Below, piece by piece: positions 1 to 16,415 of a DNA stretch of 36,264 bases. The stretch lies in the IMG/VR virus record IMGVR_UViG_2778261165_000017, positions 1-36,264 of that record. One strand, given 5' to 3'. Both the position numbers and the translations under genes were made by a program. Each line of letters opens with the position of its first letter. The stretch's first letter is position 1. Source of the stretch: a virus. Its lineage: Duplodnaviria; Heunggongvirae; Uroviricota; Caudoviricetes. A model generated the notes under the pieces. It did no database searches. It was not told where the DNA came from and was given only the letters and a program-made list of their open reading frames with translations.

Positions 1-1020
1 CTACTTACTGACCACAAGCGGCAAATCCAGTGTTGGGGTGATTTTGGTTTTACGATCGTAAATCAACACCTGATTTTCTGTTTTGTGTCCACTGAAAATT
101 TGTTTGTCGCGACTGCTGCCTTCGTAATCTGAAATCCCTTTGGCTTTTATGTCATGGAAGTTGCACCCAAACGGAACGCCGGCTTTTTGCTCGGCTGCAC
201 GTTTAGCCTGATTCCACCAGTTGTTCAGCGTCTTGGCTATTACCTTCCCGCCTTTGGTTGTGTTGATCACATACTCGCATGTGCCGGAAGATACATTTCG
301 GGCTAACTGGATCGCCGTACGTAATCGTGGAGACCATTCCTTGATTTGTTTAGTGCCGGTCTTGTTTTGCTCAATGTAAATCCCTTTATCCATAATATCC
401 TGCCATTTCAGCTCGAGTACATCACCGAGCCTTGCAGCACAAAGATAGGATATCTCCATTGCAATACGTAACTGTGGAATTGCTTCCGCATATATCGCAG
501 CATACTGTTCATCGGTGATGTAAACAGTACGGGCTTTAAGCGTGAATTTTCTGACTCCTTTGCATGGATTATTTTTCACATACCCACGCTCATACCCCCA
601 TCCGTATACACGGCTCAGACTTGCCAGTTCATGGTTTGCCTGGGTCTTACTCTCGAGTCCTCGTTTATCCATGAAAATTCTTACCTGCTCAATTTTTACA
701 TTATCAGCAAGTACTTTTCCGAATACCGCCAGCAATGCCCTTTGATGTTGCTGATAATCTTTTTGGGTTCGGGGTGCCAGTTCTGTAAATGCAGGGGAGT
801 CCATAAACATGTGCCATAATTTAGCGACGGTCATTATGTTGTGAAGTTTTGCTTTTTCCAGTTCATAATTTTGCCAGACTTTAGCCACGCTGGTTTCCCG
901 CACTCTACCGAGTCCTATAGTTCTTGTGCTTCCTTCGGGTTTCCATACGTAACTGTAACCATTCGATCTAACACGTGGTGGCAGTGCATTATCTTTTTTG
1001 TTTTTTCTTGGTCTTCCCAT
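1..1020 (-). CDS. int: Tyrosine integrase, lambda Int-like (339 aa)
   Basis: ORF translation resembles lambda Int as recalled (N-terminal MGR..R, arm-binding region); stop codon at 3..1; GAGG RBS 9 nt upstream of ATG at 1020; first gene of prophage. Confidence 0.9.
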   Translation of the reverse strand: MGRPRKNKKDNALPPRVRSNGYSYVWKPEGSTRTIGLGRVRETSVAKVWQNYELEKAKLHNIMTVAKLWHMFMDSPAFTELAPRTQKDYQQHQRALLAVFGKVLADNVKIEQVRIFMDKRGLESKTQANHELASLSRVYGWGYERGYVKNNPCKGVRKFTLKARTVYITDEQYAAIYAEAIPQLRIAMEISYLCAARLGDVLELKWQDIMDKGIYIEQNKTGTKQIKEWSPRLRTAIQLARNVSSGTCEYVINTTKGGKVIAKTLNNWWNQAKRAAEQKAGVPFGCNFHDIKAKGISDYEGSSRDKQIFSGHKTENQVLIYDRKTKITPTLDLPLVVSK

Positions 1021-1240
1021 TGTTCAGCGCCTCAAAATCGGGTTCAGCAGAAACCAGTTCAGATATTTTCGACATTGCTGTCAGCCCGTGCGGAACATCC
1101 CGGCGAAGAACTATTGGTTCGTTTTTAGGTCCGATTACAAACGGGATGCCGTGCAGCCTTAGCTGATGTTGCTGTCTTGTGTATCGCTCGTATCTCGTGA
1201 TCTCTTGAATCTCTGCTGGCGATAGAGTTAATTCGTACAT
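989..1240 (-). CDS. xis: Putative excisionase (83 aa)
   Basis: Small basic ORF directly upstream of int and overlapping it by 32 nt, as for lambda xis-int; no sequence-level family match confirmed. Confidence 0.55.
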   Translation of the reverse strand: MYELTLSPAEIQEITRYERYTRQQHQLRLHGIPFVIGPKNEPIVLRRDVPHGLTAMSKISELVSAEPDFEALNNGKTKKKQKR

Positions 1241-1306: not shown

Positions 1307-3787
1307 TTAAAAATCAACCGGATTCGGGATCAGTTTTTGCCAGATTGCTGAAACGTATTTTGCCTGGTGACGGGCGTCATCCAGTGCATTGTGGCGCACG
1401 CCTTCGAATGGAATAACGGTTCTGGCATCAAAGTCGATTGTTTTTCCCAGCTCAACGATTGTGCGTACATCGCGATCGTTGTGGTAGCGCCACGGGCAGG
1501 GGATGTCCAGACGTTCGTATGAGGTGCGCAAAATTGCGTTATCGAAAGTTGCACCATTACCCCATACCTGAACGAATTTTTCATCTGAGTATTCGTTGAT
1601 GAACTCCCGAAACCGCGAAAGGGCATCCTTCAGTTTTACCTGGTCTGTTAAAATGGCTGCTCTGGCTTCACTGGACTGCTTCAGCCACCATTCGATGGCT
1701 CCACCGTCAGGAACAGCCCCTGTATTCATTGCGTCAGTCAGACTGATAACGATATAAAATACTGGCCCGATTTCCCCTGTTTGTGGGTCGAAGAAAACCG
1801 CACCAATAACCACGATGGGCGCATTGGTGTTGGCTCCCATCGTCTCAAGGTCGATCATCAGGTGATACCACGTTTTGCTGGTGGACTTATATTTATGATG
1901 GCCGGTCACCACAATTAAGGGATCTGCCGTCTCACCAGTTTCATTATCGCTGGCGTGGTCCTGAGCGCTGCCAGCATTCTCCTTGTGTGGATGTTCAGCG
2001 CCTTCCATTTCCTCCGGATCATTTTCCTGAACTTCAACCTGATTCTCTTCATCGAATGTTTCCTGGTATGTTGCGTCGCCCATCGCCGCGCCACAATCAG
2101 GGCAGTTGCCGCCACCGCTCTGACCGCAGGCGGTGCAGACTTTTTCCGGTTCCTGTTGCGCTACTGGCTCAGGTTGTTTCGTTTCTGGCTCGTTTTGTAA
2201 CGCATTTTGGCTGTTTTGTTCCGCTTTCTGGTCGTTCTGTTCCGATTCTTGCTGGTTCTGGTTTACAGAATCGCGGGTTTCAATCCCCTTCACCCATTTC
2301 GGATCATTCGGGTCGCTAATCCCTGCAACAAATTCTCCGCGAGAGGCAGCAAGCAACTTATCGGCGTCAGGCTGGCTGATATTGGCTGCCTGCATAATTT
2401 TGTTTACTTCGTCAGCGGTAACTTTTACCGGCTCTGGTTGTGCGGTCGTGTCAGATGCACCAGTATTTTGTTGTGAACCTGAGTACGTGCCGTTTTTACG
2501 GGCAAAATATTCTTCTTTCGTGATTTCAGTAGCCCCTGCAGCCAGCGCCTTATTCAGACCAGAAAGTTTGTTTGCACGACCATATTTTTCGCCATCCTTA
2601 TCGGTGAAGAGGAAGTAGAACGGCCCCTCACGCTCTACAGATGGTTCAGTTTCCAGCGCGCTTTCATTTTTTTGGGTATCAGATACTTCAGTTTCCACTG
2701 CATCAGTTTGTGCTGCTGACGGCTGGAGAATATCAGCAGTGCTCTGGTCTGTTTCTTCATCCTCAAACACGCCCTTTGTCGCCAGGTATTCAGTGATGTA
2801 TTTGTTCAGCGCCACGGGATCTTTGTGAATGTCGATCGGACGCTCACGGACAAGGCCAAAAATAGTCTGACGGTCGTAGCGAACGGCATCAGGTTGTTTG
2901 CGCATTGATGCGGAAATACGCTTCCAGTCTTCGCGATCTTTGTCGATAACTTCATTTTTTGCCCAGCGATGGATGCTGCCGTCAATGTTTCCGGCATCAA
3001 TATCACCAGGCCAGAAAGCGTAGGCCAGTTCTTCATCCAGTGTTTTCCATGTCTGCCTGTATTCGCGACGAATGACAGCAGTTACGGAGTCAGTTTTTCC
3101 TGCAGAGTTTTCAGTGCCTTGCCGGTTGACTCTGGCGCGGGCAAGATCGACGACGGAATTATATGCGCCACCTTCTTTGCGCTCCTTTTCCATGCGTTTT
3201 TTACGTTCGAGAAAATACGCCTGAACGTCGGGCCATTTGGCTGTTGGTTTTAAATCACGTCTGGCATCGTTGATGTACTCAATCTGACGCTCTGGATACA
3301 TGGCGTTAATTTCTCTGGTCCGGATAATTGCTTCAGCGAGGTGTCCATCAAAAGTCGTCATCTCGTCATCGCCGAGAAGCCCGCTTGCATTGATGACCAT
3401 ATCCACGGTGATGTTTTCATGTGTACCGAACCTGACAAGGACAGCAGCCCGCTTGTCGTCAGATAACTGATTAAAGTTAACAGTTTCTGTATCCGGTTCA
3501 GGGTCGACCGGAACAAAGGAAGCCGACTCCTCATTCCAGCGGTTTTCCTGCATATATTCGGAATCCCAGGAATCGAGAGCAGGGCGGGCCATGCCGGGTT
3601 TATCCTCGCAGACAAGAAATTTATAAGCACAGTCCTGAGCTTCCGGGTATTGTTCCAGAAATAACCAGCTAAATTTGGCTCTTGCCCGGCGTTCGTCGCC
3701 TGCTTCAATGGCAGTGGCCACAGGTTTAGCGCCTTCTGCTGTTGCCTGTTCGTCCGGAATGGCGGCGCAAATAAAGACTTTACTCAT
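1307..3787 (-). CDS. Large exonuclease, RecE/YdfE-family N-terminal region fused to a DnaQ-like DEDDh 3'-5' exonuclease domain (826 aa)
   Basis: C-terminus carries LMIDLETMG...GAVFF and HNALDDARH motifs typical of DEDDh exonucleases; central CxxC...CxxC cluster (CTACGQSGGGNCPDCG); N-terminus MSKVFICAAIPDE resembles Qin YdfE as recalled. Confidence 0.75.
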   Translation of the reverse strand: MSKVFICAAIPDEQATAEGAKPVATAIEAGDERRARAKFSWLFLEQYPEAQDCAYKFLVCEDKPGMARPALDSWDSEYMQENRWNEESASFVPVDPEPDTETVNFNQLSDDKRAAVLVRFGTHENITVDMVINASGLLGDDEMTTFDGHLAEAIIRTREINAMYPERQIEYINDARRDLKPTAKWPDVQAYFLERKKRMEKERKEGGAYNSVVDLARARVNRQGTENSAGKTDSVTAVIRREYRQTWKTLDEELAYAFWPGDIDAGNIDGSIHRWAKNEVIDKDREDWKRISASMRKQPDAVRYDRQTIFGLVRERPIDIHKDPVALNKYITEYLATKGVFEDEETDQSTADILQPSAAQTDAVETEVSDTQKNESALETEPSVEREGPFYFLFTDKDGEKYGRANKLSGLNKALAAGATEITKEEYFARKNGTYSGSQQNTGASDTTAQPEPVKVTADEVNKIMQAANISQPDADKLLAASRGEFVAGISDPNDPKWVKGIETRDSVNQNQQESEQNDQKAEQNSQNALQNEPETKQPEPVAQQEPEKVCTACGQSGGGNCPDCGAAMGDATYQETFDEENQVEVQENDPEEMEGAEHPHKENAGSAQDHASDNETGETADPLIVVTGHHKYKSTSKTWYHLMIDLETMGANTNAPIVVIGAVFFDPQTGEIGPVFYIVISLTDAMNTGAVPDGGAIEWWLKQSSEARAAILTDQVKLKDALSRFREFINEYSDEKFVQVWGNGATFDNAILRTSYERLDIPCPWRYHNDRDVRTIVELGKTIDFDARTVIPFEGVRHNALDDARHQAKYVSAIWQKLIPNPVDF

Positions 3788-3867: not shown

Positions 3868-4071
3868 TTACGGTGCTGTTTTAAGTCCTGCCGGGATTTC
3901 GTTATTGTCCATATGAATAACTTTATCGACCGGATAACAGTTACCGGGAATTTTTTGCTCTGCCGCGGCAGTCATGCATTCTTCCATTGAGTCATGTATG
4001 TCAATAACAAGATCAATCGGTTCACCAGAAACAAAAAAAACAGTCAGAACGAGTACAAATGCCGTATTCAT
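3868..4071 (-). CDS. YdfD-like small membrane protein (67 aa)
   Basis: ATGA start/stop overlap with the upstream dicB-like gene; N-terminal hydrophobic helix (AFVLVLTVFFV); position after dicB matches the Qin dicB operon. Start could alternatively be 4080. Confidence 0.5.
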   Translation of the reverse strand: MNTAFVLVLTVFFVSGEPIDLVIDIHDSMEECMTAAAEQKIPGNCYPVDKVIHMDNNEIPAGLKTAP

Positions 4072-4256
4072 TGCCTGCATCCTGTTTGCATCAGACGTAA
4101 ACGGGCCAGCATCGAAACAATGCATATTTTATTTAGCAGTTCCTGTTCGTGTTTTCTTTTATTAATGGCATCTTCAGTAAATATCTGATTGCTGATAGTG
4201 ACACCAATTTCAAAACAACCTTCAGACGTATTAACGTTTGGTAATAACGTTTCCAT
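4068..4256 (-). CDS. dicB: DicB-like cell-division inhibitor (62 aa)
   Basis: Translation METLLPNVNTSEGCFEIGVTISN...KICIVSMLARLRLM matches DicB as recalled (62 aa); GAGGA RBS 9 nt upstream; lies 175 nt downstream of DicF. Confidence 0.7.
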   Translation of the reverse strand: METLLPNVNTSEGCFEIGVTISNQIFTEDAINKRKHEQELLNKICIVSMLARLRLMQTGCRQ

Positions 4257-4430
4257 TATCGCGTCCTCAACAATGAATTTTGTGATGCGGTGCCTGGTGC
4301 CTCCAGGTGACGTTAACCAGTTAACAATTAACGCCGGATACAGAGAATCCACCCATAACACTGTTTTTAGCTTTAACTGTTCCGCGTGCGCTTAGCCGCA
4401 TTCACCGCATCACAAAATTCACTTTAAAAA

Positions 4431-4483
4431 GGGCGGCAGAGCAGTCACGGAGTAAAACTGATACCGCCAAACGCCACCAGAAA
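4431..4483 (-). ncRNA. dicF: DicF small RNA (53 nt) with U-tail at 4426..4430
   Basis: Minus-strand sequence TTTCTGGTGGCGTTTGGCGGTATCAGTTTTACTCCGTGACTGCTCTGCCGCCC followed by TTTTT matches DicF as recalled, with one difference near the 5' end. Confidence 0.75.
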
Positions 4484-6273: not shown

Positions 6274-6555
6274 TTACCTAGGAAATTGGCGTCTGGCGTG
6301 GGCGACGCTCACAATTTCAATACTTGAAGTGGCCACACGGTACAGAATGATATAGTTAGGGTGAGCTACAATCTCGCGCAACCCAGACACTCTGTCGCTT
6401 GATGGGTATAAGTACGGATGTTCGGATAAAGCTAAAACACATGTCTCAATGCGAATTTTTAGTCTACGTGCGGCATGGAGATTTTCTTTTGCAATATAGG
6501 CTACGATCTGACGTAAATCATCACGCGCAGAAGGTAGCCATAAGATGGGCAGCAT
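6274..6555 (-). CDS. ParE/RelE-family toxin (93 aa)
   Basis: Translation MLPILWLPSARDDLRQIVAYI...YRV...IEIVSVAHARR has the typical ParE/RelE fold signature; start overlaps the antitoxin stop. Confidence 0.8.
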   Translation of the reverse strand: MLPILWLPSARDDLRQIVAYIAKENLHAARRLKIRIETCVLALSEHPYLYPSSDRVSGLREIVAHPNYIILYRVATSSIEIVSVAHARRQFPR

Positions 6556-6746
6556 CACACACTCCCGTTAGTCGCAGAAATTTGGGCAATGAGATTTTCT
6601 ATTTCTGCCATTGCCTCATCATGGGGAATTGCAGGGCGCGGATCTGCAAGACTTGCAGCTACTTTTGTACGCAGCCATTCGTTGTAGCTGTTTTCTTGCT
6701 CAATGGTTTCAAATTCAGAAACTATAGGCGAAAGAGCAGTGTTCAT
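6555..6746 (-). CDS. Cognate antitoxin (ParD-like, 63 aa)
   Basis: Small acidic ORF immediately upstream of and overlapping the toxin; GGAG RBS 8 nt upstream; 30 nt downstream of the repressor stop. Confidence 0.7.
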   Translation of the reverse strand: MNTALSPIVSEFETIEQENSYNEWLRTKVAASLADPRPAIPHDEAMAEIENLIAQISATNGSV

Positions 6747-6776: not shown

Positions 6777-7184
6777 CTACGCTCGGTGCCCTTTCTGGGC
6801 CGCGAGCCATCTTGCAACAGTGCGATCCATTGACTCTTTTTTGTCTTTCATGTCTTTAAGCATTTGTTCCTGATCTTCCTCTGGAAATGCTCCGAATGTT
6901 TGAAGCAGTTCCCTTTGTCTGGGGCCTATTTTCATGGTATCTGGCACCACAACTTGCTCTTCTTCGCTTGGCGGTAACATAAACCAATACGGGGGAAAGC
7001 CCGTTACGTCTGAAAGTTTATCAAGATTAGCAGTCGATGGACTTGTAATGCCATGAACCCACTTTTGGACTGACTGCTGGGCAACACCTATCCTGCGGGC
7101 TAGCTCTGCCTGCTTAAGTCCTGTTTTTTCCAGCACCAATTTTATTCGGTACGTAGTTATTTCAAGGGTGGTCATTCGCTTCAT
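6777..7184 (-). CDS. Prophage repressor, DicA/RacR-like HTH protein (135 aa)
   Basis: N-terminal HTH (LKQAELARRIGVAQQSVQKWVHG); same length and C-terminal pattern as DicA; divergent from the cro-like gene; no S24 peptidase domain; no obvious SD before the ATG. Confidence 0.8.
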   Translation of the reverse strand: MKRMTTLEITTYRIKLVLEKTGLKQAELARRIGVAQQSVQKWVHGITSPSTANLDKLSDVTGFPPYWFMLPPSEEEQVVVPDTMKIGPRQRELLQTFGAFPEEDQEQMLKDMKDKKESMDRTVARWLAAQKGHRA

Positions 7185-12972: not shown

Positions 12973-13127
12973 TTTTATATTGGCGAGGTGACGGGAGTTA
13001 AGTAGAATTGCTGCGGGTGCTTGAGGCTGTCTGCCTCAGGCATGAACACCAAAAGGCAGATAGAGAAAAGCCCCAGTTAACATTACGCGTCCTGCAAGAC
13101 GCTTAACATTAATCTGAGGCCATATCT

Positions 13128-13340
13128 ATGCTCTACACACGTAGGTTAGCCTCTTACGTGCCGAAAGGCAAGGAGAAGCAGGCTATGAAGCAGCAAAAGG
13201 CGATGCTAATCGCCCTGATCGTCATCTGTTTAACCGTCATAGTGACGGCACTGGTAACGAGGAAAGACCTCTGCGAGGTACGAATCCGAACCGGCCAGAC
13301 GGAGGTCGCTGTCTTCACAGCTTACGAACCTGAGGAGTAA
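13128..13340 (+). CDS. mok: Mok-like in-frame extended reading frame (70 aa)
   Basis: In-frame N-terminal extension of hok, like MokC (69 aa) as recalled. Confidence 0.5.
   Translation: MLYTRRLASYVPKGKEKQAMKQQKAMLIALIVICLTVIVTALVTRKDLCEVRIRTGQTEVAVFTAYEPEE
13185..13340 (+). CDS. hok: Hok/Gef-family type I toxin (51 aa)
   Basis: MKQQKAMLIALIVICLTVIVTALVTRKDLCEVRIRTGQTEVAVFTAYEPEE is near-identical to HokC/Gef as recalled; AAGGAG RBS. Confidence 0.85.
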   Translation: MKQQKAMLIALIVICLTVIVTALVTRKDLCEVRIRTGQTEVAVFTAYEPEE

Positions 13341-13788: not shown

Positions 13789-14844
13789 GTGCGGGTATTA
13801 CTTCGACCTGTTCTGGTACCGGAACTCGGGCTGGTGATCGTTAAGCCGGGCCGTGAATCCATGCCGGTATTCCACAATACCCGGGTACTGGTGGAGCCGG
13901 AACCGAAAAGCATGCGTAATCTGCCGTCCGGGGTCGTTCCTGCCGTTCGCCAGCCGCTGGCGGAGGATAAATCATTACTGCCATTTTTCAGCGACGAACG
14001 AGTGATTCGTGCTGCTGGTGGCGCTGGCGCATTGTCTGACTGGTTACTGCGCCATGTTAAATCCTGCCAGTGGCCACACGGTGATTATCACCACAGTGAA
14101 ACCGTCATTCACCGTTATGGTACCGGCGCAATGGTGTTGTGCTGGCACTGCGACAACCAGCTGCGCGACCAGACCTCCGAATCACTCGGGCAACTTGCTC
14201 ACCAAAACCTGTCTGCATGGATGATTGACGTCATACGCCATGCAATGAATGGCTCGCAGGAACGGGAATTATCGCTGGCTGAATTATCCTGGTGGGCGGT
14301 CCGCAATCAGGTGGCGGACGCGCTACCGGAAGCGGTATTACGTCGTTCGCTGGGGTTGCGTGCGGAAAAAATCCGCTCAATGTACCGTGAAAGCGACATC
14401 GTACCGGGAGAGCAGACCGCCACCAGCATACTGAAGCAGCGCACAAAAAATCTTGCGCCGCTGCCTCACGCCCACCAGCAAAACCCGCCACAGGAAAAGA
14501 CGGTGGTCAGCATTGCCGTTGATCCCGAGTCACCGGCTCAGTATCTCCAGCGCCAGAAATCACAACGGGAAGAGATGCCTGTATACACGCGCTGGGTAAA
14601 AACGCAGAAATGCATGACGTGTGGCAATCAGGCAGATGATCCGCATCACATCATTGGTCATGGACTGGGAGGGATGGGAACAAAGGCTGATGATTTGTTT
14701 GTTATTCCGCTGTGCCGTAAATGCCATAGCGAACTACACGCCGGGGTAAAAGATTTTGAAGAAAAACACGGCAGCCAGCTGTTGTTGCTGATTCGTTTTT
14801 TAATGCACGCGAGAAATTCGGGTGTTCTGAAGTGGAAAGCATAA
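13789..14844 (+). CDS. DUF968-family protein (YdfU-like, 351 aa) with C-terminal HNH-like Cys/His motif
   Basis: GGAGG RBS before GTG; C-terminal CMTCGN...HHIIGHG...CRKCHSELH; same position as ydfU upstream of Q in Qin. Confidence 0.7.
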   Translation: MRVLLRPVLVPELGLVIVKPGRESMPVFHNTRVLVEPEPKSMRNLPSGVVPAVRQPLAEDKSLLPFFSDERVIRAAGGAGALSDWLLRHVKSCQWPHGDYHHSETVIHRYGTGAMVLCWHCDNQLRDQTSESLGQLAHQNLSAWMIDVIRHAMNGSQERELSLAELSWWAVRNQVADALPEAVLRRSLGLRAEKIRSMYRESDIVPGEQTATSILKQRTKNLAPLPHAHQQNPPQEKTVVSIAVDPESPAQYLQRQKSQREEMPVYTRWVKTQKCMTCGNQADDPHHIIGHGLGGMGTKADDLFVIPLCRKCHSELHAGVKDFEEKHGSQLLLLIRFLMHARNSGVLKWKA

Positions 14845-15210
14845 ATGACTGAACGCATAGAATTTGTTTTGCCTTACCCGCCAACGGTGAACACTTACTG
14901 GCGTCGTCGTGGCAGCACATATTTTGTATCAAAAGCCGGGGAGCGTTATCGCCGGGCAGTGGCGCTTATTGTTCGCCAGCAGCGGCTGAAATTAAGCCTG
15001 TCCGGAAGGCTGGCAATAAAAATTATTGCAGAGCCACCGGATAAGCGCCGCCGCGACCTGGACAATATCCTGAAGGCACCACTGGATGCGCTGACGCATG
15101 CCGGACTTCTCATAGACGACGAGCAGTTTGATGAAATCAATATTGTGCGCGGACTGCCTGTTCCTGGTGGTCGGCTGGGGATAAAAATCACAGAACTGGA
15201 GTGCGCATGA
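14845..15210 (+). CDS. rusA: Holliday junction resolvase RusA (121 aa)
   Basis: Motifs YPPTVNTYW, DKRRRDLDN, GGRLGIKITE align with RusA as recalled. Confidence 0.85.
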   Translation: MTERIEFVLPYPPTVNTYWRRRGSTYFVSKAGERYRRAVALIVRQQRLKLSLSGRLAIKIIAEPPDKRRRDLDNILKAPLDALTHAGLLIDDEQFDEINIVRGLPVPGGRLGIKITELECA

Positions 15211-15896
15211 ATAACCAGTATTTACAGTTTGTGCGTGAGCAGCTCATTATCGCTACCGCTGATTTGAGTGGGGCAACAAAAGGTCAGCTTGAAGCCTGGC
15301 AGGAGAATGCCATGTTTGATACAGGGCGTTACAGGCGTAAAAAAATCCGGTACCGCGATGAAGTGACTGGAAGAATGATAACGCGGGATAGTCCACCGAT
15401 ACCGGGAAAACAATCACTGGCGAAAGGCTCATCAATTGCTCTGGTAAGTCAGGTTGAGTTTTCGACATCATCATGGCGACGGGCAGTTCTGTCTCTTGAA
15501 GAACTTCATAAAGCCTGGTTGTTGTGGTGTTACAGCGGGAGTATTTATTGGGAATATCAGATCGCGATAACACAGTGGGCGTGGAATGAATTTAATGCTC
15601 AATCCGGTACCAGAAAAATTGCAGGGAAAACGCAGGAACGCCTGAAAAAATTAATCTGGCTGGCGGCGCAGGCAGTAAAAGCAGAACTTTTTGGTGGGGA
15701 AGGTTATGAATACCAGGAGCTGGCATTACTGGCGGGAGTGACAACTAAAAACTGGTCAAAAACATTTACTCGTCACTGGGTTGCAATGAAACACATTTTT
15801 CACCGACTGGATAGTGAGGCTTTATTGTTTGTAATGAGAACACGTTCAAAACAAAAGACGGCATTTTCAAAGCAAAGTGTTGCAAAAGTAGATTGA
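15207..15896 (+). CDS. Late-gene antiterminator Q-like protein (229 aa)
   Basis: ATGA overlap with rusA; lies immediately upstream of a strong promoter plus terminator and the lysis cassette; family not sequence-verified. Confidence 0.6.
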   Translation: MNNQYLQFVREQLIIATADLSGATKGQLEAWQENAMFDTGRYRRKKIRYRDEVTGRMITRDSPPIPGKQSLAKGSSIALVSQVEFSTSSWRRAVLSLEELHKAWLLWCYSGSIYWEYQIAITQWAWNEFNAQSGTRKIAGKTQERLKKLIWLAAQAVKAELFGGEGYEYQELALLAGVTTKNWSKTFTRHWVAMKHIFHRLDSEALLFVMRTRSKQKTAFSKQSVAKVD

Positions 15897-16105: not shown

Positions 16106-16181
16106 GGCCCTTTAGCTCAGTGGTGAGAGCGAGCGACTCATAATCGCCAGGTCGCTGGTTCAAATCCAGCAAGGGCCACCA
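16106..16181 (+). tRNA. tRNA with CAT anticodon, Ile2 (lysidine)-like / Met-type
   Basis: Cloverleaf folded by hand; 7-bp acceptor stem GGCCCTT/AAGGGCC; anticodon loop CTCATAA; closely resembles E. coli ileX as recalled; CCA encoded. Confidence 0.85.
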
Positions 16182-16182
16182 A

Positions 16183-16259
16183 CCGCCACTAGCTCATCAG
16201 GAAAGAGCGTCAACCCTTTAAGTTGAGTGTGCGAGGTTCGAGTCCCCGGTGGCGGTCCA
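16183..16259 (+). tRNA. tRNA-like gene with atypical anticodon loop CCTTTAA (anticodon TTT if canonical, C at position 33)
   Basis: Perfect 7-bp acceptor stem CCGCCAC/GTGGCGG, perfect 5-bp anticodon stem, T-loop TTCGAGT with one A-C mismatch in the T stem; CCA encoded. Confidence 0.55.
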
Positions 16260-16261
16260 GT

Positions 16262-16337
<76 letters not shown>

Positions 16338-16340
16338 TAT

Positions 16341-16415
<75 letters not shown>

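Follow-up and report, generated by a model that had tools for sequence, protein, structure and literature searches.

The window analysed here is a stretch of 36,264 nucleotides from a tailed phage (Caudoviricetes; positions 1 to 36,264 of IMG/VR record IMGVR_UViG_2778261165_000017), and it is a lambdoid prophage in prophage orientation. We have focused on one gene near its left end, located at 1307-3787 on the minus strand, which starts with ATG, is preceded about 10 nucleotides upstream by GAGG and encodes a protein of 826 amino acids (aa), in agreement with the open reading frame (ORF) originally predicted there. The protein joins a RecE-family scaffold to a DEDDh 3'-5' exonuclease, and no RecT- or Bet-like annealase accompanies it, either in the window or at any other locus of this type in our survey. 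The features of the gene are as follows (all on the minus strand; AF2, AlphaFold2 model; pLDDT, predicted local distance difference test).

1307-3787, whole gene, RecE-family scaffold fused to a DEDDh 3'-5' exonuclease (ORF list, PHROG 2082, Pfam)
3068-3787, YdfE-type N-terminal module, aa 1-240, made up of an alpha/beta subdomain (aa 1-100) and then a helical one (aa 110-205)
2753-3067, helical module B1, aa 241-345, common to RecE-type proteins; aligns to RecE from residue 278, pLDDT 93-98
2483-2632, small predicted beta-beta-alpha-beta-alpha domain, aa 386-435, in an otherwise disordered linker (full-length AF2)
2291-2368, the most conserved short motif of the family, aa 474-499, DKLLAASRGEFVAGISDPNDPKWV, with invariant columns from D474 to W498
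2093-2137, C4 zinc-ribbon-like cluster, aa 551-565, CTACGQSGGGNCPDC (Cys positions)
1910-1927, swap breakpoint, aa 621-626 (ADPLIV), the last residues common with RecE; BLASTP similarity ends at RecE 592
1340-1864, DEDDh 3'-5' exonuclease domain of the Rv2179c/T4 DexA family, aa 642-816 (Pfam PF16473)

The C-terminus had been expected to be a DnaQ-like exonuclease, and domain annotation bears this out. It matches the Rv2179c-like 3'-5' exoribonuclease family PF16473 with 228.9 bits (cutoff 27, E 4.5e-68) over model positions 2-177 of 177, with RNase_T as a second, weak Pfam match. The catalytic residues D646, E648, D749, H799 and D804 align with D7, E9, D119, H186 and D191 of T4 DexA, and these five columns are invariant in an alignment that also includes ST64B Sb30 and PY54 gp51. 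Among solved structures, T4 DexA (PDB 8KEL/8KEN) alone shows detectable similarity in sequence to the domain (E 3.6e-9), while Rv2179c itself went undetected by pairwise sequence comparison. On this evidence it is very likely that the protein is a DEDDh exonuclease, whatever its biological role. The match to PHROG 2082 ('exonuclease') spans the full length of the protein, and an identical protein in Escherichia albertii (P0001), annotated as '3'-5' exoribonuclease/exonuclease', has precomputed Pfam matches to both YdfE family models (PF27430, YdfE_N, and PF27432, YdfE_C) as well as to PF16473.

The rest of the protein is a scaffold of more than one origin. Residues 1-256 are 67% identical (BLASTP, E 2e-115) to the product of the IS2-truncated ydfE pseudogene in the Qin prophage of E. 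coli K-12, in line with the resemblance to YdfE noted in the original prediction. That prediction had described the N-terminus as RecE/YdfE-like; the extreme N-terminus is indeed of the YdfE type, but the RecE-like part turns out to be the middle of the protein, where aa 262-626 match residues 278-592 of K-12 Rac RecE (BLASTP, 39% identity), rising to about 80% by eye over aa 470-626. Module B1, which is present in both nuclease classes described below, probably corresponds to Pfam YdfE_C. In an AF2 model built from a 59-sequence alignment, aa 1-345 have a mean pLDDT of 90.6 and fold into the alpha/beta subdomain and two helical ones (110-205 and 245-340). Between this folded region of about 345 aa and the nuclease lies a long, acidic and largely disordered linker. 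In the full-length model 273 residues have a pLDDT below 50 (at 207-236, 345-384, 438-478, 496-547 and 571-652), and the ordered elements gained past aa 345 are the small domain at aa 386-435, the zinc ribbon (moderate confidence) and the exonuclease domain. The small domain has a pLDDT of 88-95, with strands and helices at 390-431, and the same region in relatives matches it (module B2). An exhaustive search with aa 1-640 against 1.84 billion representative proteins recovered only 235 relatives, indicating a narrow family.

Two short elements of the linker are shared with RecE. The first is the motif with consensus LAAxRGE[FY]VxGISDPxDPKW, whose columns are invariant in a 10-sequence alignment and which was found in 25 of 56 long representatives bearing either type of nuclease. 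It has low pLDDT, as expected of a linear motif, and the lowest ratio of nonsynonymous to synonymous substitution rates (dN/dS) of the gene (0.06-0.11); judging from this conservation, it is probably a partner-binding peptide. The second is the mid-protein cluster of four cysteines already noticed in the original prediction (C551-x2-C554-x7-C562-x2-C565, pLDDT about 70), which is kept in 120/120 close homologs and in K-12 RecE (residue 517) and in only 6 of the 56 distant representatives.

The resemblance to RecE ends abruptly. RecE reads ..ETGEVADPVIV/EDIEPGIYYG.. at the junction, against ..ETGETADPLIV/VTGHHKYKSTSKTWYHLMIDLET.. (VTGHHKYK..) in the window protein, and at the DNA level similarity to a Rac recE stops at nucleotide 1868 of the gene. 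The PD-(D/E)XK nuclease of RecE is absent: there is no similarity past RecE 592 and no Pfam Exonuc_VIII or DUF3799 match, and a search of the window with the RecE nuclease as seed matched the shared linker only. The NCBIfam RecE equivalog PRK09709 scores 282 bits against a cutoff of 1269, with aa 240-627 covering model positions 263-604 of 877 and thus no full-length match.

The absence of an adjacent annealase, also claimed originally, extends to the whole window. Pfam and PHROGs gave no annealase, single-stranded DNA-binding protein (SSB) or Gam family match among the scanned ORFs, those of the early operon included, and phmmer (--max), run over all six frames of the entire window with lambda Bet, Exo and Gam and three RecT-like seeds, found nothing below E 0.3. 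No ORF between the exonuclease gene and the repressor exceeds 135 aa, and the ORFs nested in other frames within the exonuclease gene (up to 161 aa) had no Pfam match and revealed no hidden annealase.

To place this locus among its relatives, 42 loci were classed by seed searches: the window, K-12 Rac, two phages, six metagenome or genome contexts and 32 Enterobacteriaceae loci (one genome per species). They fell into three types.

Scaffold with DEDDh domain, 15 loci: xis/int next in 15/15; RecT/Bet-like gene within about 7 kb in 0/15
Scaffold with PD-(D/E)XK nuclease, 23 loci: RecT-like gene immediately downstream in 23/23
Scaffold with a C-terminus without recognised domain, 4 loci: no RecT/Bet-like gene

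At PD-(D/E)XK loci of the non-Rac type, the downstream genes were confirmed as PHROG 561 'RecT-like'. Annealase absence is therefore a rule of the DEDDh family as a whole and not an accident of the window locus. Among the long scaffold relatives, Pfam matched Exonuc_VIII in 24, the PDDEXK-like DUF3799 in 13, Rv2179c-like in 9 and RecT in 1, and module mapping showed that all four combinations of N-module (YdfE- or RecE-type) and head (DEDDh or PD-(D/E)XK) exist among the representatives. Since one DEDDh locus sits in an otherwise Rac-like operon (KilR, YdaE, SieB), with the DEDDh head replacing the nuclease and recT absent, the exchanged unit is 'nuclease head plus recT' versus 'DEDDh head alone'. 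The suggestion that the gene has a role other than classic RecET recombination is thus supported, both by the replaced head and by this linkage, although the gene may still serve recombination by way of the host RecBCD/RecA pathway.

The third class (L020:6974-9322, L030:6947-8488, L031:6971-9274 and L032:6866-8563, together with proteins P0126, P0139, P0144, P0147, P0155 and P0158) has YdfE-type N and B modules followed by a C-terminal region of about 100-330 aa without Pfam domain or similarity to either head. None of the four loci has a RecT-like gene nearby; the P proteins were covered by a domain scan alone. This third class probably corresponds to the 'RecE-2' proteins, for which PMC12315714 states that a nuclease domain is lacking. 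Another variant, P0199 (703 aa), lacks the nuclease domain, its RecE-type scaffold (aa 1 to about 527) passing directly into RecT residues (aa 516-703), and is either a natural deletion-fusion or an artefact of assembly or gene calling.

Within the window, the exonuclease gene is the last of the early-left operon before xis and int. The surrounding features are listed below.

1-1020, minus strand, tyrosine integrase at the prophage end (ORF; annotated as integrase adjoining yccA in E. coli TB4019)
989-1240, minus strand, excisionase-like xis (DUF4224), directly downstream of the exonuclease gene (Pfam)
3868-4125, minus strand, DUF1482, upstream of the exonuclease gene (Pfam), part of the Qin-like operon stretch 3868-4482
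4068-4256, minus strand, DicB, upstream of the exonuclease gene (Pfam)
4431-4482, minus strand, DicF small RNA (sRNA), upstream of the exonuclease gene (Rfam, 76.4 bits)
6274-6746, minus strand, ParE-toxin/PaaA2-antitoxin pair, between the early-left genes and the cI-like repressor
6777-7184, cI-like repressor
13789-14844, plus strand, DUF968/HNH-like protein
14845-15210, plus strand, RusA Holliday-junction resolvase, after the DUF968/HNH-like gene

The presence of DicF and DicB a short way upstream of the exonuclease gene makes the early-left operon Qin-like (ydfC-dicF-dicB-ydfD-ydfE). On the far side of DicF, this leftward operon holds a 135-aa ORF of unknown nature, a YdfC-like ORF, DUF1391, the toxin-antitoxin pair and the repressor, and no promoter-like site was found on the minus strand between the upstream operon genes and the exonuclease gene. 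The order exo-xis-int is common to the phages Tritos and 606R7 and to loci L009, L011 and L013, whereas in Rac the slot of xis comes only after recT, ralR and rcbA. Rightward of the repressor come cro, YdaT, a replisome organiser, DUF977, a methyltransferase, Ead/Ea22, DUF968/HNH, RusA, Q, tRNAs and the lysis and structural genes; a junction resolvase has thus been kept by a phage without annealase. The nin-like region also contains a sok antitoxin RNA (13015-13190, plus strand, Rfam 117.8 bits), which implies a toxin-antitoxin locus of the hok/sok type, and a cluster of four tRNAs (16106-16412, plus strand) lies downstream of the Q antiterminator gene (15201-15896).

The gene is widespread. 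Matches to part of it occur in 4741 of 5426 complete E. coli genomes and a copy covering at least 80% in 1780, and the number of matching places per genome has a median of 2 and a maximum of 9. Intact ORFs of 820-827 aa occur in hundreds of clusters, and the gene is also found in phage genome records (e.g. Tritos, Evi and an mEp460 derivative). Substitution rates were obtained by comparing the window gene with its homologs in Tritos, E. ruysiae and E. albertii (loci L007, L016 and L018). All regions of the gene have a dN/dS of 0.06-0.45, with 0.25 in the N module, 0.18-0.36 in B1, about 0.44 in the Q/N/E-rich, zinc-ribbon and acidic region (aa 506-629) and 0.16 in the exonuclease domain, so that every module is under purifying selection. 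The synonymous rate (dS) is about 1.0 over aa 1-240, 0.15-0.39 over aa 241-629 (only 0.15-0.19 in B1) and about 1.15 over aa 630-826. As dS is 3-7 times lower in the middle than in the terminal modules, the conserved middle has been exchanged recently by recombination within the gene, and it is probably the crossover substrate by which modules are shuffled.

Broken copies exist as well. The gene of vB_EcoM-606R7 (L008:6670-9113) is split into ORFs of 306 and 455 aa, and the NC_000913 ydfE (L002:7079-7999) is truncated by IS2. Two Escherichia-like copies (L019 and L029) are filed under metagenome-assembled genomes of Veillonella parvula and Roseburia sp., labels that most likely reflect binning contamination and not true hosts.

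A further feature of the window is its content of Chi (GCTGGTGG). There are 15 sites, 12 on the plus and 3 on the minus strand, against 1.56 +/- 1.29 in shuffled sequences, a roughly ten-fold and strand-biased excess, and one of them falls inside the exonuclease gene.

Chi sites: 1877, 7815, 7860, 10763, 14014, 14420 (minus), 14472 (minus), 16019, 17716, 18460 (minus), 20772, 21212, 21568, 31109, 31288

This combination has a precedent in a 2025 survey of lambdoid recombination modules (Genome Res, PMC12315714 Table 1), which includes a class of four phages, with Tritos as prototype, that possess the nuclease while annealase (single-strand annealing protein, SAP), SSB and anti-RecBCD are all absent, and whose Chi counts range from 21/6 to 7/2.

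Putting these observations together, we tentatively favour the view, to which we would give somewhat less than an even chance, that the protein is a tethered DEDDh trimmer of 3' ends serving host RecBCD/RecA and not single-strand annealing. The RecE-family scaffold would hold its nuclease head, of either kind, at one and the same target, which could be the DNA ends or a host partner bound via the conserved motif, and the DEDDh head would trim 3' single-stranded DNA tails. Such trimming would most likely feed or regulate phage DNA recombination and replication that depend on host RecBCD/RecA, for example by giving back to RecBCD the near-blunt ends that it loads onto, with no single-strand annealing of the RecET type involved. 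The host RecBCD-RecA pathway appears the most likely client because the phage has no annealase and no detectable Gam, is rich in correctly oriented Chi sites and carries RusA. In E. coli, reloading of RecBCD is known to be blocked by 3' tails, and 3'-5' single-strand exonucleases relieve this block (PMC5592934).

Several points weigh against this proposal. Feeding of RecBCD is its weakest link, because 3'-5' DnaQ-like exonucleases usually inhibit rather than promote recombination (a remark in PMC12315714) and because Chi richness is also found in the RecE+RecT 'Gifsy-1' class of the same survey and so is not specific to DEDDh phages. The want of an anti-RecBCD function is read from the lack of lambda Gam similarity and of any Gam-like Pfam or PHROG match among the scanned ORFs, GamL, MuGam and Abc2 not having been searched with seeds of their own. 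Membership of PF16473 is compatible with either substrate, the family uniting DNA exonucleases with an RNA exonuclease (Rv2179c), and the full-length AF2 model gives the exonuclease domain only moderate confidence (pLDDT 50-88), its alignment having been built for the scaffold. For that scaffold no fold relative could be recognised, so that its tethering role is pure inference. Finally, a literature search found no functional study of YdfE, the window protein or a close homolog.

A broader version of the same idea, which we regard as rather improbable, would make the scaffold a platform that delivers interchangeable heads to one cellular target by means of the invariant GISDPxDPKW motif: a PD-(D/E)XK 5'-3' nuclease together with RecT, a DEDDh 3'-5' nuclease alone, or the third C-terminus without recognisable domain. 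The DEDDh version would then amount to a distinct recombination strategy of phages, in which trimming of 3' tails channels Chi-rich, Gam-less DNA to RecBCD-RecA and away from single-strand annealing.

The protein could instead be a nuclease for defence or superinfection exclusion, degrading incoming and possibly modified phage DNA and thereby protecting the lysogen. The attraction of this idea lies in T4 DexA, which belongs to the same Pfam family, and in EcD, a stand-alone E. coli homolog of DexA that is reported to degrade DNA containing 5-hydroxymethylcytosine (5hmC) and to protect against T4, a system named 'HREX' (PMC12153337). Stand-alone versions of the domain such as ST64B Sb30 also occupy an accessory-gene slot adjoining xis/int. 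The neighbouring dicB, moreover, protects against some phages. Yet the residues proposed to recognise 5hmC are not kept, DexA W152 being replaced by H and D169 by T in the window protein (in a region of low identity where the alignment is moderately reliable), and the tetramer residue D90 of DexA, which EcD has lost, is still Asp at the aligned position. By the criteria of PMC12153337, the window domain is on alignment not HREX-like. PADLOC, run on the protein and two neighbours, matched no model; a gene at the distal end of a repressor-controlled operon with no promoter-like site of its own should be silent in the lysogen, and the 640-aa RecE-type scaffold would be left unexplained. We therefore hold a defence role to be unlikely.

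An RNA exonuclease like M. tuberculosis Rv2179c, trimming 3' ends as operon transcripts or sRNAs (DicF, for instance) are processed or turned over, or those of host RNAs in the lytic phase, is a doubtful alternative and slightly harder to sustain. It has in its favour the Pfam and NCBI family name, '3'-5' exoribonuclease', the presence of DicF in the same operon and some weak matches to oligoribonuclease, among them the top Foldseek match of the moderate-confidence model against PDB (the DEDDh enzyme Orn, E 0.27, TM 0.50), which we have not used as evidence of fold. Pairwise comparison, however, detects the DNA exonuclease DexA and not Rv2179c, and the head stands in the position of a DNA exonuclease on a scaffold that otherwise bears DNA nucleases. 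DEDDh genes also occur in Rac-like operons without annotated DicF, and processing of DicF was for that reason rejected as the main explanation.

Classic single-strand annealing would need an annealase provided in trans, either from another prophage in the same cell or from a small gene that went unrecognised, and seems very unlikely. Co-resident prophages are certainly common, to judge from the number of matching places per E. coli genome, the scaffold is shared with RecE and several small ORFs of the early operon have no known function; but the polarity is wrong, as a 3'-5' exonuclease destroys the 3' tail that annealases need. The contrast between 0/15 and 23/23 loci and the small size of the ORFs up to the repressor also speak against it, as does the pairing of RecT with the C-terminal nuclease region of RecE (general knowledge; review PMC11611040), which is absent here. 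That the gene is merely a decaying remnant, a chance fusion that illegitimate recombination left behind in a defective prophage and that has no selected function, might be suggested by its mosaic nature, the IS2-truncated K-12 ydfE and split copies like that of 606R7, but is largely refuted by the selection analysis (dN/dS of 0.16 in the exonuclease domain and at most 0.45 elsewhere, all catalytic residues kept) and by intact ORFs in hundreds of clusters, copies in 1780 complete genomes and occurrences in phage genome records, leaving it scarcely credible.

The gene itself is already known, being annotated, represented in Pfam and PHROGs and very common, and its phage class has been tabulated (PMC12315714). 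What is added here is the exact swap point, the linkage rule of 0/15 versus 23/23, the conserved linker motif and the mosaic structure within the gene. Were the RecBCD/RecA proposal correct, the preparation of DNA ends for host recombination in lambdoid phages that have neither annealase nor RecBCD inhibitor would be explained by a gene that is very common in E. coli prophages and present at almost full length in roughly one in three complete genomes. It would also provide a first functional handle on the N-terminal region of RecE, about 600 aa that are described in a review as 'of unknown function' (PMC11611040) and that are relevant to linear-linear recombineering. That recT accompanies the PD-(D/E)XK head strictly and the DEDDh head never is a natural experiment, according to which the scaffold works independently of annealing. 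For annotation purposes, it is misleading to label these genes 'exodeoxyribonuclease VIII' or the like, and such names give no ground for assuming a RecET system.

Compared with known systems, the window protein shares with RecE (exonuclease VIII of the K-12 Rac prophage) the middle region, the GISDPNDPKW motif, the C4 zinc ribbon and the acidic linker. RecE, however, has an extreme N-terminus of its own type, a PD-(D/E)XK 5'-3' nuclease and recT downstream, while the window protein has a YdfE-type N-terminus, a DEDDh 3'-5' nuclease and no recT. YdfE of Qin (K-12 pseudogene b1577) resembles it over aa 1-256 and lies in the same operon (ydfC-dicF-dicB-ydfD-ydfE-int), but is cut by IS2 after residue 256 and so has neither the linker nor the nuclease domain; the window gene amounts to an intact ydfE.

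Several relatives of the exonuclease domain are stand-alone proteins. T4 DexA, a 3'-5' DNA exonuclease (PMC12153337), belongs to the same Pfam family and keeps the DEDDh residues at about 28-29% identity, but it has specific insertions not found in the window domain, and both DexA and EcD are proteins of about 190-227 aa without scaffold. Sb30 of the Salmonella phage ST64B and gp51 of the Yersinia phage PY54 are closer (57-60% identity to the C-terminal domain) and likewise lack the scaffold at about 190 aa, and Sb30 lies in the same slot, immediately upstream of xis-int, with no annealase annotated nearby. M. tuberculosis Rv2179c, the founder of PF16473, shares the family and the DEDDh chemistry but is a bacterial RNA 3' exonuclease and not a phage protein. 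The nearest counterpart of the complete gene is TRITO_27 of Tritos, with 823 aa, 76% amino acid identity and the same architecture and gene order, although in both the N- and the C-terminal module the window gene is a diverged allele (dS about 1). The main text of PMC12315714 tabulates the Tritos class, describing there no chimeric RecE-scaffold/DEDDh architecture and testing no function. The window resembles that class in having the nuclease, no annealase or SSB in the early-left operon, and abundant, strand-biased Chi.

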